Source: Escherichia coli
Lineage (GTDB): Bacteria > Pseudomonadota > Gammaproteobacteria > Enterobacterales > Enterobacteriaceae
DNA length: 64,000 nucleotides
Assembly: GCF_046105845.1 (NCBI RefSeq)
Contig: NZ_CP151004.1
Strand: one strand, 5' to 3'
Part shown: positions 12,230 through 37,097 of the stretch, piece by piece
Position numbering within the stretch: position 1 is the stretch's first letter
Layout of the letters: every line of letters starts with the position of its first letter
Translations under genes and position numbers: made by a program
Notes under the pieces: generated by a model
The model's database searches: none
What the model saw: the letters and a program-made list of their open reading frames with translations, nothing else
Told to the model about the DNA's origin: nothing

Positions 12230-12235
12230 TTCTCT

Positions 12236-12385
12236 TACCCTCACCCTAACCCTCTCCCAAAGGGAGAGGGGACCGATCGGCGTGGTATCCAGGTGCCGTG
12301 TCGGTTTGCAACTTCGCTCGGTGGGAAAGTATGCACCGCCTTTCTCCCTCGCCCCTCTGGGGAGAGGGCCGGGGTGAGGGGATCA
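12236..12385. repeat. Long imperfect palindromic intergenic element between ugpB and ugpA
   Basis: ccctcaccctaaccctctcccaaagggagagggg on the left is mirrored on the right by ccctctggggagagggccggggtgagggg. The arms are inverted repeats of each other, with internal short hairpins. Confidence 0.55.
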
Positions 12386-12404
12386 CAACACGAAGAGTTT
12401 AACT

Positions 12405-16492: not shown

Positions 16493-18238
16493 ATGATAAA
16501 ACCGACGTTTTTACGCCGGGTGGCCATTGCTGCTCTGTTCACAGGAAGTTGTTTTAGTACGGTAGCCGCGCCACCTGCGCCGTCTCCTGTTTCTTACGGC
16601 GTGGAGGAAGATGTCTTTCATCCGGTACGCGCGAAACAGGGGATGGTGGCGTCTGTAGATGCTACTGCCACTCAGGTGGGGGTGGATATCCTCAAGGAGG
16701 GCGGGAATGCCGTTGATGCCGCCGTGGCTGTGGGCTACGCGCTGGCGGTAACGCATCCGCAGGCAGGGAATCTGGGCGGTGGTGGTTTTATGCTGATCCG
16801 CTCGAAAAATGGCAATACCACTGCTATCGATTTCCGCGAAATGGCACCCGCCAAAGCGACCCGCGATATGTTCCTTGATGATCAGGGTAACCCGGACAGC
16901 AAAAAATCACTCACTTCGCATCTGGCTTCTGGTACGCCCGGTACGGTAGCAGGTTTCTCGCTGGCGTTGGATAAATACGGCACCATGCCGTTGAACAAAG
17001 TGGTGCAACCGGCGTTTAAACTGGCACGCGATGGTTTTATCGTTAACGACGCGTTGGCTGACGATCTCAAAACCTACGGTAGCGAAGTGCTGCCGAATCA
17101 CGAAAACAGCAAGGCTATCTTCTGGAAAGAGGGCGCGCCGCTGAAAAAGGGCGACAAGCTGGTGCAGGCGAACCTGGCAAAGAGCCTGGAGATGATTGCC
17201 GAAAACGGCCCGGACGAATTCTACAAAGGCACGATAGCGGAACAGATTGCCCAGGAGATGCAGAAAAACGGTGGCTTGATCACTAAAGAAGATTTAGCGG
17301 CGTATAAAGCGGTCGAGCGCACACCAATAAGCGGCGATTATCGCGGGTATCAGGTTTACTCCATGCCACCGCCATCTTCCGGCGGGATTCATATCGTGCA
17401 GATCCTCAATATCCTGGAAAACTTCGATATGCAGAAATACGGCTTTGGCAGCGCCGATGCGATGCAAGTCATGGCAGAAGCGGAGAAATACGCCTACGCC
17501 GACCGCTCGGAATATCTTGGCGACCCGGATTTTGTCAAAGTCCCGTGGCAGGCGCTGACCAATAAAGCCTATGCCAAATCTATTGCCGATCAAATCGATA
17601 TCAATAAAGCGAAGCCATCCAGCGAAATTCGCCCCGGCAAGCTTGCGCCTTATGAGAGTAATCAAACTACCCATTACTCAGTGGTGGATAAAGACGGCAA
17701 CGCGGTAGCGGTGACCTATACGCTGAACACCACCTTCGGTACGGGCATTGTCGCGGGTGATAGCGGTATTCTGCTTAATAACCAGATGGATGATTTCTCC
17801 GCCAAACCTGGCGTACCGAACGTTTACGGGCTGGTGGGCGGTGACGCCAACGCGGTCGGGCCGAATAAACGCCCGCTGTCGTCGATGTCCCCAACCATTG
17901 TGGTGAAAGACGGTAAAACCTGGCTGGTTACCGGTAGCCCTGGCGGGAGCCGGATTATCACCACCGTGCTGCAAATGGTAGTGAATAGTATCGATTATGG
18001 CATGAACGTCGCCGAAGCGACCAATGCGCCGCGTTTCCACCATCAGTGGTTGCCGGACGAGCTGCGTGTCGAAAAAGGGTTTAGCCCGGATACGATCAAG
18101 CTGCTGGAAGCAAAAGGTCAGAAAGTGGCGCTGAAAGAGGCGATGGGTAGTACACAAAGCATTATGGTTGGGCCTGACGGTGAGCTGTACGGTGCATCTG
18201 ACCCGCGCTCGGTAGATGATTTAACGGCGGGGTATTAA
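16493..18238 (+). CDS. ggt: Gamma-glutamyltranspeptidase
   Basis: 581 aa from ATG 16493 (MIKPTFLRR...). Signal peptide. Autoprocessing site and nucleophile context NQTTHYSVVD, GGG motif. Confidence 0.95.
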   Translation: MIKPTFLRRVAIAALFTGSCFSTVAAPPAPSPVSYGVEEDVFHPVRAKQGMVASVDATATQVGVDILKEGGNAVDAAVAVGYALAVTHPQAGNLGGGGFMLIRSKNGNTTAIDFREMAPAKATRDMFLDDQGNPDSKKSLTSHLASGTPGTVAGFSLALDKYGTMPLNKVVQPAFKLARDGFIVNDALADDLKTYGSEVLPNHENSKAIFWKEGAPLKKGDKLVQANLAKSLEMIAENGPDEFYKGTIAEQIAQEMQKNGGLITKEDLAAYKAVERTPISGDYRGYQVYSMPPPSSGGIHIVQILNILENFDMQKYGFGSADAMQVMAEAEKYAYADRSEYLGDPDFVKVPWQALTNKAYAKSIADQIDINKAKPSSEIRPGKLAPYESNQTTHYSVVDKDGNAVAVTYTLNTTFGTGIVAGDSGILLNNQMDDFSAKPGVPNVYGLVGGDANAVGPNKRPLSSMSPTIVVKDGKTWLVTGSPGGSRIITTVLQMVVNSIDYGMNVAEATNAPRFHHQWLPDELRVEKGFSPDTIKLLEAKGQKVALKEAMGSTQSIMVGPDGELYGASDPRSVDDLTAGY

Positions 18239-18242
18239 TATC

Positions 18243-18273
18243 TTAAGCCCTCTCCCGATAGGCGAGGGCTTAA
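18243..18273. terminator. Hairpin between convergent ggt and yhhY (probable bidirectional terminator)
   Basis: aagccctc ... gagggctt inverted repeat within a 60-bp convergent intergenic gap. Confidence 0.5.
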
Positions 18274-18298
18274 ATGACAAACTTAGATTGCAAATTCT

Positions 18299-18787
18299 CT
18301 ATTTCACCCGCGCCATATAATACGCATCGACATATTCACCATTACGTAATGCGTACTTCTTGCCAGTCCCTTCAATCTCAAAGCCGAATTTTTTATAGAC
18401 CTTAATTGCTGGCGCGTTATCGACGAACACCGTTAGCTCAATACGATCTACCCGCAACCAGTTGTCGCACATTTCAATCATCTCTCGCATCAGGGCGCTG
18501 GCGACGCCGCGATTCTTCCAACGGGAGTCGACACAAATACCAAAATCGGCAACATGACTGCGGCGTGGGCGCTGTTGCACGTCAATGGTGAGGTGACCCA
18601 CGACGGTTCCATCAATACAGGCAACTAACTGTTTGATGCCGGGACGATCGGCGAGTCGCTCCTGCCACATATGATCGGAAGGATGAGGCACCTGTAGTGT
18701 GTTGCAATACACCTCCGGCTGGGCGTGAATCTGCCTGATGGCCTCGTAATCGCGCGTTTCAGCATGGCGTATCACTATCTCACTCAT
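18299..18787 (-). CDS. yhhY: GNAT family N-acetyltransferase YhhY
   Basis: 162 aa from the internal start MSEIVIRH. GNAT motifs RRSHVADFGICV and RGVASALM. Confidence 0.9.
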   Translation of the reverse strand: MSEIVIRHAETRDYEAIRQIHAQPEVYCNTLQVPHPSDHMWQERLADRPGIKQLVACIDGTVVGHLTIDVQQRPRRSHVADFGICVDSRWKNRGVASALMREMIEMCDNWLRVDRIELTVFVDNAPAIKVYKKFGFEIEGTGKKYALRNGEYVDAYYMARVK

Positions 18788-18883
18788 TCCTTTGTCCTCT
18801 TTGGGGTAAATGTCCCTTTCAACATCATTGACTTTCCAATGCGAGTCAAATGCATTTTTTTGCAAAAAGTGTTGGACAAGTGC

Positions 18884-18906
18884 GAATGAGAATGATTATT
18901 ATTGTC
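18884..18906 (+). promoter_or_regulatory. Fur box overlapping the ryhB promoter
   Basis: gaatgagaatgattattattgtc matches the GATAATGATAATCATTATC Fur consensus and lies immediately upstream of the ryhB transcription start. Confidence 0.75.
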
Positions 18907-18908
18907 TC

Positions 18909-18998
18909 GCGATCAGGAAGACCCTCGCGGAGAACCTGAAAGCACGACATTGCTCACATTGCTTCCAGTATTACTTAGCCAGCCGGGTGCTGGCTTTT
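18909..18998 (+). ncRNA. ryhB: Iron-responsive small RNA RyhB
   Basis: The stretch gcgatcaggaagaccctcgcggagaacctgaaagcacgacattgctcacattgcttccagtattacttagccagccgggtgctggcttttttt is the RyhB sequence, ending in its terminator hairpin. It sits between yhhY and yhhX as in E. coli. Confidence 0.9.
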
Positions 18999-19119
18999 TT
19001 TTGATCTTTCGTTTTCAATTTATCCACGGGAAGTGCTTGTGTTCGTTATGCGCACTCCAGTAGGAACCACGTCCGCTTTGCGCTAAGGTGTAAATAATCA
19101 CCTTAAAAAGGACGAAATC

Positions 19120-20157
19120 ATGGTCATCAACTGCGCCTTTATTGGCTTCGGCAAAAGCACCACCCGTTACCATCTGCCGTATGTACTTAACCGCAAGGAT
19201 AGCTGGCATGTCGCGCATATTTTTCGCCGCCATGCGAAGCCGGAAGAACAGGCCCCCATTTACTCTCATATCCATTTCACCAGCGATCTCGACGAAGTAC
19301 TAAACGATCCCGATGTTAAGCTGGTTGTGGTCTGCACCCATGCAGACAGCCACTTCGAGTACGCGAAGCGCGCGCTGGAAGCCGGGAAAAATGTGCTGGT
19401 CGAAAAACCGTTCACCCCGACGCTTGCCCAGGCGAAGGAGCTGTTTGCGCTGGCGAAAAGCAAAGGACTGACCGTCACGCCGTATCAGAATCGTCGTTTT
19501 GACTCCTGCTTCCTGACAGCGAAAAAAGCGATTGAAAGTGGCAAGTTGGGAGAGATTGTCGAAGTGGAAAGCCATTTTGACTATTACCGCCCGGTGGCAG
19601 AAACCAAACCTGGGCTGCCGCAGGATGGCGCGTTTTATGGCCTTGGTGTGCATACGATGGACCAGATTATTTCTCTGTTCGGTCGCCCGGATCACGTCGC
19701 TTATGACATCCGCAGCCTGCGTAATAAAGCCAATCCTGACGACACCTTTGAAGCGCAGCTGTTTTATGGCGACCTGAAAGCCATCGTCAAAACCAGCCAT
19801 CTGGTGAAAATCGATTATCCGAAATTTATCGTTCACGGTAAGAAAGGTTCGTTTATTAAATACGGTATCGACCAGCAGGAAACCAGTCTCAAGGCTAATA
19901 TTATGCCGGGCGAACCGGGATTCGCAGCGGATGATTCGGTCGGTGTGCTGGAGTATGTCAATGACGAGGGTGTGACGGTCAGAGAAGAGATGAAGCCGGA
20001 GATGGGCGATTACGGGCGCGTTTATGATGCGTTGTATCAAACCATCACCAACGGTGCGCCAAATTACGTCAAGGAATCTGAAGTTCTTACCAATCTGGAA
20101 ATCCTTGAACGCGGATTTGAGCAAGCCTCTCCCTCCACAGTGACTCTCGCGAAGTAA
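19120..20157 (+). CDS. yhhX: Gfo/Idh/MocA family NAD(P)-dependent oxidoreductase YhhX
   Basis: 345 aa. N-terminal Rossmann motif AFIGFGKS. Confidence 0.92.
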   Translation: MVINCAFIGFGKSTTRYHLPYVLNRKDSWHVAHIFRRHAKPEEQAPIYSHIHFTSDLDEVLNDPDVKLVVVCTHADSHFEYAKRALEAGKNVLVEKPFTPTLAQAKELFALAKSKGLTVTPYQNRRFDSCFLTAKKAIESGKLGEIVEVESHFDYYRPVAETKPGLPQDGAFYGLGVHTMDQIISLFGRPDHVAYDIRSLRNKANPDDTFEAQLFYGDLKAIVKTSHLVKIDYPKFIVHGKKGSFIKYGIDQQETSLKANIMPGEPGFAADDSVGVLEYVNDEGVTVREEMKPEMGDYGRVYDALYQTITNGAPNYVKESEVLTNLEILERGFEQASPSTVTLAK

Positions 20158-20279
20158 GTTTGATGGCCCCTCGAATAGTTCAATTTTTTTGAACAGAGGG
20201 GTCAATTTTCACCCTCTATCATCCCAGGCAGATCGGGTCCACACTAAGCCCATCGAAAACATTCAGGGGGCGAATACAA

Positions 20280-20975
20280 ATGATCTACTTACGCAAAGCA
20301 AATGAACGTGGTCATGCAAATCATGGCTGGCTGGACTCCTGGCATACTTTCTCTTTTGCCAACTATTACGATCCGAACTTTATGGGCTTCTCCGCGCTGC
20401 GCGTGATTAACGACGACGTGATTGAAGCAGGGCAGGGCTTCGGCACTCACCCGCATAAAGATATGGAAATTTTGACCTACGTGCTGGAAGGTACTGTTGA
20501 GCATCAGGACAGCATGGGCAATAAAGAGCAGGTTCCGGCGGGTGAGTTCCAGATTATGAGTGCGGGTACGGGTATTCGTCACTCAGAGTACAACCCAAGC
20601 AGCACCGAGCGTCTGCATCTGTATCAGATCTGGATCATGCCTGAAGAAAACGGTATTACGCCGCGTTATGAACAGCGTCGCTTCGATGCCGTACAGGGCA
20701 AACAGCTGGTGCTCTCGCCGGATGCGCGAGATGGTTCGCTGAAAGTGCATCAGGATATGGAACTGTATCGTTGGGCATTGCTGAAAGATGAGCAGTCGGT
20801 GCATCAGATTGCCGCTGAACGCCGCGTCTGGATCCAGGTGGTGAAAGGCAATGTCACCATTAACGGCGTGAAAGCCTCGACCAGCGATGGTCTGGCAATC
20901 TGGGATGAGCAGGCAATCTCCATCCATGCGGATAGCGACAGCGAAGTGTTACTGTTCGATCTGCCGCCGGTTTAA
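20280..20975 (+). CDS. yhhW: Pirin-like quercetin 2,3-dioxygenase YhhW (cupin)
   Basis: 231 aa. Cupin metal-binding His motif HPHKDMEILTYVLEG. Confidence 0.92.
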   Translation: MIYLRKANERGHANHGWLDSWHTFSFANYYDPNFMGFSALRVINDDVIEAGQGFGTHPHKDMEILTYVLEGTVEHQDSMGNKEQVPAGEFQIMSAGTGIRHSEYNPSSTERLHLYQIWIMPEENGITPRYEQRRFDAVQGKQLVLSPDARDGSLKVHQDMELYRWALLKDEQSVHQIAAERRVWIQVVKGNVTINGVKASTSDGLAIWDEQAISIHADSDSEVLLFDLPPV

Positions 20976-21198
20976 AACTCAACGGCATCTTTGAAGCCTG
21001 CCTTTTTGCAGGCTTCCTCGCTCGCTCCGGTCGCGTGCTGATGTACGCTTCCGGGGTTTTGCCGCGTCGTTAGCACAATGCGATGCAATTGATTTAGTGT
21101 ATATCTAATAATTGTAAACAAGCACTGTTTTCCCCGGGAAGGTTCTGATGCGTCCGTGTTAAACTAAGAGAATCTATCTCTTTTGTACCTTCAGGACG

Positions 21199-22194
21199 AT
21201 GAAAAAGAAAAGACCCGTACTTCAGGATGTGGCTGACCGTGTAGGCGTGACCAAAATGACGGTCAGCCGCTTTTTGCGTAACCCGGAGCAGGTTTCCGTC
21301 GCTCTACGCGGCAAGATTGCCGCCGCTCTTGATGAACTGGGTTATATTCCCAATCGCGCACCCGATATCCTCTCTAACGCCACCAGCCGGGCGATTGGCG
21401 TCCTGTTACCTTCTCTCACCAACCAGGTTTTTGCGGAAGTATTACGCGGAATCGAAAGCGTCACCGACGCGCACGGTTATCAGACCATGCTGGCCCACTA
21501 CGGTTATAAACCGGAAATGGAGCAAGAACGCCTCGAATCCATGCTCTCCTGGAATATCGACGGCCTGATCCTCACTGAACGTACGCACACGCCGCGCACC
21601 TTAAAGATGATTGAAGTGGCGGGGATTCCGGTGGTGGAGTTGATGGACAGCAAGTCGCCGTGCCTCGATATTGCCGTCGGTTTTGATAACTTTGAAGCGG
21701 CACGCCAGATGACCACCGCCATTATTGCTCGCGGGCATCGCCACATTGCCTATCTCGGCGCACGTCTCGACGAACGTACTATCATCAAACAGAAGGGATA
21801 CGAACAGGCGATGCTGGATGCAGGCTTGGTGCCGTATAGCGTGATGGTTGAGCAATCTTCTTCTTACTCTTCCGGTATTGAACTGATTCGCCAGGCGAGG
21901 CGGGAATATCCGCAGCTGGATGGCGTGTTCTGTACTAATGATGACCTGGCGGTCGGCGCGGCGTTTGAATGTCAGCGTCTGGGGTTAAAAGTTCCTGACG
22001 ATATGGCGATTGCCGGTTTCCACGGTCATGACATTGGTCAGGTGATGGAACCACGGTTGGCGAGCGTACTGACGCCGCGTGAGCGGATGGGCAGTATTGG
22101 CGCTGAACGCCTGCTGGCGCGTATTCGTGGCGAATCTGTGACACCGAAAATGTTAGATTTAGGTTTCACCTTGTCACCGGGCGGATCTATTTAA
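21199..22194 (+). CDS. gntR: Gluconate utilisation repressor GntR (LacI family)
   Basis: 331 aa. N-terminal HTH LQDVADRVGVTKMTVSRFL. Upstream of gntK-gntU. Confidence 0.94.
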   Translation: MKKKRPVLQDVADRVGVTKMTVSRFLRNPEQVSVALRGKIAAALDELGYIPNRAPDILSNATSRAIGVLLPSLTNQVFAEVLRGIESVTDAHGYQTMLAHYGYKPEMEQERLESMLSWNIDGLILTERTHTPRTLKMIEVAGIPVVELMDSKSPCLDIAVGFDNFEAARQMTTAIIARGHRHIAYLGARLDERTIIKQKGYEQAMLDAGLVPYSVMVEQSSSYSSGIELIRQARREYPQLDGVFCTNDDLAVGAAFECQRLGLKVPDDMAIAGFHGHDIGQVMEPRLASVLTPRERMGSIGAERLLARIRGESVTPKMLDLGFTLSPGGSI

Positions 22195-35790: not shown

Positions 35791-35807
35791 GTTCGCAAAG
35801 TGGTAAC

Positions 35808-35856
35808 TGCCGTGTGTTCTCTTAAAGCTATCGTTAATGGGCACACGGCATTTTTA
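35808..35856 (+). terminator. Terminator-like hairpin downstream of glgP
   Basis: tgccgtgtg ... cacacggca 9-bp stem followed by TTTTTAT. The loop is long (25 nt). Confidence 0.55.
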
Positions 35857-36272
35857 TATCAGATAAACGATATGTCATGACAATTTACAGACAGCATCGA
35901 TATATAATTCATATTTATTAATTTTTAATAATGATTCTCATCTGAGTATGTATCATACAATAAGCATTATAAATAACCAATAAATTATTTATTATATTTA
36001 TATATTGCCCCACTCTTCAGTTATCCTGTCTAAAATAAATCTCTTTGTTTTCAAATGACTGTATTTTTATATAAAGTCAATCATTGCGAGCATGGATTCT
36101 TTTAGTTATATTACCAAGCAGCTCATATAATATTTTCAAGCCATTCTATCTCTTATTTTTTCTGTGGTTAACTACACCAGCTTTATTCATTTAAATAATT
36201 TGACTTATTAAAGCTGAATGTAAAAATAATCGCCAATATTGCTTGGATTTTTTAACAAAAGGAAAGGTATAA

Positions 36273-36977
36273 ATGAAATTCAATCTATCTAATTTATCAG
36301 CAGTTTTACTCGCATCAGGTATGCTGATGTCAACTGCGGTAACCGCTGCGCCAGGCGATGCATCACAATTTGGTGGTGCGGATACAGACTGGAGCACCGT
36401 TGATTATCCAAAACTCACCGATATGGATAACAACACCGATGCGATGGGCGGAAACATCCGCTTTACTGGTCGTGTGGTTAAAGCGACGTGTAAGGTTGCT
36501 ACAGAATCGAAACAGATTGAAGTGGTACTGCCAGTCGTACCTTCTAACGCTTTCACGGGCATTGATACCGAAGCAACGGGCGCCAGTAACCAGACTGACT
36601 TCAACATTAAACTGACTGATTGTAGCAATACGGACAGTCAAAACATTGAATTTCGTTTTACTGGCGTAGCAGACGGTGCCAACCAGACGCTTGCCAATGA
36701 AGTGGAAGGAGCTACTGATGCTGATGGTACTGGCGAAGCGGGAGCTACAGGTGTAGGGATTCGTATTTATTCTAAAAACACGACAACTGATGGCCTGATT
36801 AAACTGAACACACAAACTCCCCAGGGGAGTAGTTCTTCAGCAGCCTACGTGATTCCTGGCGATGCTGCCACTCATGATTTTACTGCGGCATTTACCGCGG
36901 GCTATGCTCAGAACGGTAGTACCGTTGCACCAGGTCTGGTGAAATCGACGGCAAGTTTCGTCGTGCTGTACGAATAA
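36273..36977 (+). CDS. Fimbrial major subunit candidate (type-1/FimA-like pilin family, atypically long)
   Basis: 234 aa with signal peptide. Conserved pilin Cys pair (ATCKV ... LTDCSN). C-terminal beta-strand ASFVVLYE typical of chaperone-usher subunits. Strong SD AAGGAAAGG. First gene of the fimbrial island. Confidence 0.85.
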   Translation: MKFNLSNLSAVLLASGMLMSTAVTAAPGDASQFGGADTDWSTVDYPKLTDMDNNTDAMGGNIRFTGRVVKATCKVATESKQIEVVLPVVPSNAFTGIDTEATGASNQTDFNIKLTDCSNTDSQNIEFRFTGVADGANQTLANEVEGATDADGTGEAGATGVGIRIYSKNTTTDGLIKLNTQTPQGSSSSAAYVIPGDAATHDFTAAFTAGYAQNGSTVAPGLVKSTASFVVLYE

Positions 36978-36989
36978 TTACAGCAAGAT

Positions 36990-37023
36990 AATTTCAGGTT
37001 ACAGTTACTTGTAACCTGAAATT
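36990..37023 (+). terminator. Perfect 14-bp stem-loop after the major subunit gene (probable intra-operon attenuator)
   Basis: aatttcaggttaca-gttact-tgtaacctgaaatt, 12 nt after the stop codon. No strong U-tract follows, so partial termination or a stability element is more likely than a full terminator. Confidence 0.6.
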
Positions 37024-37097
37024 AATATTACATGTTTATTTGTAATAAATAGACATGCATCAGTAATTACAATTAATTTCATCTACAAGGATGCAGT

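Follow-up and report, generated by a model that had tools for sequence, protein, structure and literature searches.

The window analysed here, a stretch of 64,000 nucleotides of Escherichia coli DNA, contains a tight junction at which the genes ggt and yhhY meet tail to tail. The spacer between these genes is very probably the ancestral, never-occupied allele of a site that varies within E. coli, and at which foreign cassettes have replaced the spacer in other strains. The locus was known to be variable before, and the presence or absence of a cassette here is a polymorphism of an ordinary kind.

Anatomy of the junction and its hairpin

On the left of the junction, ggt (gamma-glutamyltransferase, 581 codons plus stop, 16493..18238, plus strand) starts with the ATG at 16493 and encodes a protein that begins MIKPTFLRR; its stop codon ends at 18238. 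On the right, yhhY (GNAT N-acetyltransferase, 162 codons plus stop) occupies 18299..18787 on the minus strand, with its stop codon at 18299-18301. The start of yhhY was put at 18787 because the match to NCBIfam NF007527 begins at residue 27 of a 188-residue open reading frame. Both genes are identified by NCBIfam equivalog matches that lie far over the cut-off (NF007187, 1310 bits, for ggt; NF007527, 371 bits, for yhhY).

The spacer itself, at 18239..18298, is the 60-bp gap between the two convergent stop codons. It is assigned to neither strand, and it matches no Rfam family. The flanks on both sides are collinear with those of K-12 and of strain PCN033. In the next intergenic region, between yhhY and yhhX, the small RNA RyhB is found at 18938-19002 on the plus strand (Rfam RF00057, 83 bits, E 8e-16). 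Its terminator, at 18977-18995, was also called by the terminator scan.

Within the spacer lies a palindromic hairpin of 31 nt, TTAAGCCCTC-TCCCGATAGGC-GAGGGCTTAA, at 18243..18273, recognized by folding and conservation and, like the spacer, given no strand. It begins 4 nt past the ggt stop codon and 25 nt past the yhhY stop codon, and is built from a 10-bp stem and a 2-bp inner stem. A first-pass annotation of this DNA had described the two genes as convergent, 60 bp apart and separated by a short hairpin. The reading-frame ends at 18238 and 18299, and the one hairpin found at 18243-18273, bear this description out.

The folding energy of the hairpin is -19 kcal/mol on the plus strand (z -2.1) and -21.9 kcal/mol on the minus strand (z -2.9), where none of 200 shuffles did as well. 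Across the eight Escherichia sequences compared, 12 consensus pairs are preserved. One compensatory change, from A-U to C-G, is seen in the stem in E. whittamii.

The hairpin is common to both convergent transcripts and is a probable bidirectional 3'-end or terminator hairpin. It is not a canonical intrinsic terminator. A U-rich tract 3' of the stem is absent on both strands, the tails reading AAATGACA (plus) and GATATTAA (minus), and the lack of a U-tract is the reason why the terminator scan of the window did not call the hairpin. Nor is it a REP/BIME-like repeat, since it is single-copy in the 64-kb window in a search allowing up to 3 mismatches. Assignment to a known RNA was likewise rejected, since the spacer has no Rfam match.

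The site in K-12 and in other E. coli

The K-12 reference used here is a complete genome derived from MG1655, where the order of genes is ggt - yrhB - yrhD - IS1 - yrhA - yhhZ - yhhY. The first-pass annotation had placed yhhZ, yrhA, an IS1 copy and yrhB between yhhY and ggt. All four are there; yrhD had been left out. A tight junction in MG1655 itself, which the annotation had raised against its own reading, is not what the MG1655-derived genome has, as 3,454 bp separate the two stop codons. The IS1 copy of K-12 is IS1E, lies inside yrhA, and is specific to K-12-like strains (PMC12428005). Strain IHE3034 carries the island without IS1, and its yhhZ is a pseudogene; several strains have IS1 within yrhA or yhhZ.

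As had been claimed, the window lacks the K-12 segment. On the ggt side, homology between the window and K-12 ends at the stop codon, and on the yhhY side it ends no more than a few bases from the stop codon. The sequences adjoining both stop codons also differ between the two, and the 60-bp spacer has no counterpart in K-12. The yhhZ, yrhA, yrhB, yrhD and DUF4225 proteins gave no tblastn match anywhere in the 64-kb window. No cassette gene stands between ggt and yhhY, and an IS1 cannot fit into 60 bp.

The further claim that the strain is not K-12 also holds. In collinear blocks the identity to K-12 is 95.7-98.3%, and K-12 is without an 8-kb fimbrial operon that the window has. Nucleotide identity to K-12 is 94.8% in ggt and 94.1% in yhhY; these two genes thus stand at 94-95%, against 97-99% farther out.

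The fimbrial operon fills a segment of 40.3% GC between glgP and glpD (35795-43795), where K-12 has only 437 bp with the yzgL pseudogene. Besides a major fimbrial subunit and an 863-aa usher, this chaperone-usher operon encodes two chaperones (the first of them PapD-like), two other fimbrial subunits and a fimbrial/adhesin-like protein of 383 aa. With a 24-kb probe spanning the operon, coverage of at least 80% is reached in 781 of 5,426 complete E. coli genomes. Elsewhere in the window, the ugpB-ugpA gap (12231-12404) measures about 175 bp, compared with about 97 bp in K-12, and a 217-bp stretch near bioH/rpnA (63486-63701) compares with about 11 bp there.

The same 5,426 complete genomes served as the sample in which the states of the site were counted. 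The junction had been called variable, and at least four states are indeed found. The yhhZ island, scored by the presence of yhhZ, occurs in 3,806 genomes (70%). The empty site, scored by a match to the junction probe at 80% coverage or more, occurs in 903 (16.6%). An O157-type DUF4225 cassette is found in 343 (6.3%), and yrhB only, scored by a match to the yrhB-yhhY junction of that state, in 233 (4.3%). About 141 genomes (about 2.6%) are unassigned. Genes of inter-bacterial conflict occupy the site in about 83% of sequenced strains, and none is there in the window.

The empty alleles fall into classes with 100, 97.8, 96.5 and 95.7% identity to the window. Since there are several such classes, the empty state is no rarity but an old and widespread one. 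Empty E. coli alleles differ by about 4% (the window and LD67-1 are 95.7% identical over the junction probe), a divergence that fits long persistence, not a recent event. Over 24-25 kb (window 1-25000 and 35000-59000), the best identities to the window are 98.1% (SCU-102 and PCN033) and 98.5% (AST215). On such comparisons, the window lineage is unrepresented among the 5,426 complete RefSeq genomes, none of which is close.

The cassettes that occupy the site elsewhere are AT-rich. Their GC content is 32.5% in yrhA-yhhZ of K-12, 36.7% in yrhB-yrhD and 31.8% in the O157 cassette; the figure for ggt is 54.2%, and that for the window 51.4%. Such a composition fits the import of these cassettes.

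Their products point to conflict between bacteria. YhhZ has a T6SS_HCP domain and a weak HNH match (17.4 bits, under the Pfam threshold of 21.4). It has been classed as an "evolved" Hcp-family effector with an HNH nuclease at its C-terminus (PMC2907695, PMC5714182), and is of the Hcp-ET type, an Hcp with a C-terminal toxin, that is reviewed in PMC6730261. YrhB falls into Imm35, a Pfam family of immunity proteins against polymorphic toxins. In the O157 cassette the encoded protein has DUF4225, which experiments in Vibrio have shown to be a T6SS antibacterial toxin domain (PMC9765294). No intact immunity reading frame was found in the O157 cassette, where only fragmented reading frames follow the DUF4225 gene.

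An earlier prediction lists the yhhZ-yrhAB cluster among genomic islands, as Gist34 (PMC3309015). The same paper gives the cluster a role in methionine-to-cysteine conversion, citing work in Bacillus subtilis. This assignment is not supported by the Hcp(+HNH) and Imm35 domains of the E. coli proteins, and may reflect a confusion of gene names.

The O157 locus of NADC 5570 carries two additional insertions nearby. A TPR protein gene lies between livF and ugpB (1797-2543 of that locus), and a RecQ-like (pseudogene) and DprA pair lies between gntU and yhgN (18052-21378). Neither is present in the window (at 10-12 kb and 24-25 kb, respectively) or in K-12.

Ancestral state and alternative origins

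A YhhY scan of one genome per bacterial species delivered 40 loci, on which Ggt, YhhY, YhhX and YhhA were mapped. In all 38 of the non-E. coli loci that have both genes, ggt and yhhY are adjacent and convergent. The gap between them is 70 bp in E. whittamii, 62 bp in E. albertii, 60 bp in both strain E69 and Escherichia sp. E1V33, and 59 bp in SCPM-O-B-8794. It is 81/86 bp in Citrobacter, 42 bp in Enterobacter and 89 bp in Klebsiella; in Franconibacter pulveris the distance is about 2.9 kb.

Two records in public assemblies are probably contaminated or mislabelled. The MAG contig CABHOW010000200.1 ("Flavihumibacter sp.") carries a K-12-like E. coli yhhX-yhhY-yhhZ-yrhA-yrhD arrangement at 96-100% amino acid identity, and on CACSKA010000004.1 ("Chryseobacterium sp. 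18061") the yhhX-yhhY-ggt-yhhA locus resembles that of Enterobacter.

Base by base, the window spacer can be aligned with those of E69, E1V33 and E. albertii. Full-length alignments of the 141-bp junction probe give identities of 94.3% to E69, 91.5% to E1V33 and 90.2% to E. albertii, and the spacer has diverged from these lineages to a degree similar to that of the flanking genes (92-93%). The spacers of Citrobacter and Klebsiella are longer and GC-rich, and are unrelated in sequence to that of Escherichia.

The occupied alleles of E. coli are built differently. K-12, O157 and a yrhB-only strain all have GGTTAGCGGCCCTCTTCGTGGGAAGAGGGCT as the hairpin next to ggt, and the window spacer has no homology with the flanks of any of these three beyond the hairpin core. 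Since the occupied alleles differ on both sides, the window spacer is not a deletion scar of the islands. The first-pass annotation had left to alignment with K-12 and other genomes the question of which state came first. Judged from those alignments, the tight junction is the ancestral form of the site. Within E. coli, the yhhZ-yrhB segment of K-12 would then be an AT-rich insertion, and not something that the window strain has lost.

The history proposed for the site runs as follows. In the common ancestor of Escherichia and related enterobacteria, ggt and yhhY would have stood tail to tail with a single shared hairpin, which would, most likely, end or stabilise the convergent transcripts of both genes. 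Foreign, AT-rich cassettes that encode T6SS-related toxin and immunity proteins would have taken the place of the spacer in E. coli. The main cassette is yhhZ (Hcp-HNH) - yrhA - yrhD - yrhB (Imm35); the O157 lineage has a toxin cassette with DUF4225, and other strains have yrhB alone. K-12 carries the main type, in which IS1 additionally disrupts yrhA. The window lineage would have kept an empty allele, or regained one from other E. coli through homologous recombination in the flanks. With an empty allele, it is without the orphan toxin and immunity genes.

Homologous recombination through the flanking genes is the more likely route by which alleles have been exchanged. Identity among E. coli alleles is 94.4-97.4% for ggt and 91-99.6% for yhhY, compared with 96-99.5% for yhhX and yhhW. 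The two genes are the most diverse of the neighbourhood, and their lowest identities approach the 90-94% found with other Escherichia species. Alleles of the two genes are not grouped by the state of the junction, an indication that recombination has scrambled the history.

The same route might have operated in the ancestry of the window itself, by replacing an island with an empty allele through recombination in ggt and yhhY, the donor being E. coli or another Escherichia species. Such a re-acquisition is a possibility to be taken seriously, if an unlikely one. It would account for the mosaic character of the flanks relative to PCN033, to which the window is 100% identical in the spacer, 99.6% in yhhY (100% in the YhhY protein), 97.2% in ggt and 98.3% in yhhX. 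It would also account for the fall in identity to K-12 within ggt and yhhY, and for the peak of diversity at both flanking genes. However, the ggt and yhhY of the window are nearer to E. coli alleles (95-99.6%) than to those of the other species sampled (90-94%). An import from another Escherichia species was rejected for this reason, five other Escherichia lineages having been sampled. Further, whether it came by exchange within the species or by vertical descent, the allele in the window is of the ancestral type.

A different kind of history would make the spacer hairpin an attB-like site, where cassettes insert with a 27-bp duplication. The O157:H7 strain TR01 (NZ_CP033605.1, 1-7082) seems to show just this. 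Its DUF4225 cassette sits inside a spacer of the ancestral type, with CGGTAG(G)TGAGGGCTTAAATGGCAAAC on both sides, and the 26/27-bp direct repeat corresponds to window 18256-18282. Yet the structure occurs in one of the 5,426 genomes only. Against typical O157, TR01 has no mismatch in the 1.77-kb cassette; its mismatches are dense only in the 3' end of ggt, in the spacer and in yhhY, sequences that an empty-site strain would also possess and in which TR01 has the alleles of another strain, with scattered patches elsewhere. This is the pattern expected of a consensus from a mixed sample, and TR01 is therefore treated as a probable chimeric assembly, its 27-bp repeat being most likely spurious. 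Flanking direct repeats were found in none of the K-12, O157 and yrhB-only alleles, and none of these three cassettes contains a recombinase gene. With a structure that is unique and mismatches that resemble those of a chimera, TR01 was rejected as a case of site-specific insertion with a 27-bp target duplication, and an attB-like role for the hairpin is very improbable.

Least credible of all is a secondary loss, in which the window lineage deleted a cassette, of the K-12 type or another, and came upon its tight junction by chance: partial states that look like decay do exist (the yrhB-only allele of 233 genomes), as does erosion of the island (the yhhZ pseudogene of IHE3034, the IS1 copies in yrhA or yhhZ), but after a deletion the GGTTAGCGGCCC... 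hairpin should still follow ggt and ...AAAAAGGGCACTATC should still precede yhhY; the window has neither of these island-type flanks, so that a deletion scar was rejected as the origin of the spacer, and the base-for-base alignment of its 60 bp with the spacers of three other Escherichia lineages largely refutes the idea.

Significance and comparison with known systems

On the preferred reading, that of an ancestral allele never occupied, the ggt-yhhY junction is a reliable strain marker whose original form is seen in the window. Its interest lies also in what the site repeatedly hosts, which is T6SS-related toxin and immunity genes. Strains whose site is empty are without YrhA and YrhB. If these are functional immunity proteins, such strains may be sensitive to the matching toxins of their neighbours.

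A more ambitious view holds that the spacer is a preferred site for the landing or exchange of T6SS toxin/immunity cassettes. Here, frequency-dependent selection would hold the empty allele in about 17% of E. coli, and the diversity of ggt and yhhY would be the footprint of hitch-hiking. The view arises because three unrelated cargos (Hcp-HNH/YrhA, the Imm35 protein YrhB, and DUF4225) are found at one site with the same alternative ggt hairpin. It is rather doubtful. Were it true, the window would represent a long-lived "disarmed" allele.

Orphan Hcp-ET effector/immunity modules of the Enterobacteriaceae are the kind of cargo that YhhZ represents at this site in other strains, whereas the window has no such module at ggt-yhhY. 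The yhhZ-yrhA-(IS1E)-yrhD-yrhB island of K-12 shares with the window its chromosomal site, its orientation and its flanks (ugpQ-yhhA-ggt on one side, yhhY-ryhB-yhhX-yhhW-gntRKU on the other). In contrast, the 3,454 bp of K-12 are missing from the window altogether, as are the island proteins.

The hairpin of the window resembles bidirectional intrinsic terminators in being a single GC-rich palindrome, central between convergent stop codons, that folds on both strands and is conserved in the genus. It departs from them in having no T run after the stem on either strand, so that the consensus used by the scan does not describe it. The hairpin of the K-12 island type, next to ggt, differs from that of the window by having a TATTTTG tail.

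The closest likeness is to the other empty junctions. E. albertii, E. whittamii and other Escherichia lineages have a spacer of 59-70 bp with the same hairpin. That of E. whittamii differs by a 10-bp insertion and the compensatory stem change; in SCPM-O-B-8794 the hairpin is shorter and has diverged. Within E. coli, PCN033, LD67-1 and 901 other complete genomes have the 60-bp spacer and the same hairpin. Empty junctions elsewhere differ from that of the window by a few substitutions, and the junction of PCN033 is identical to it across the 141-bp probe.
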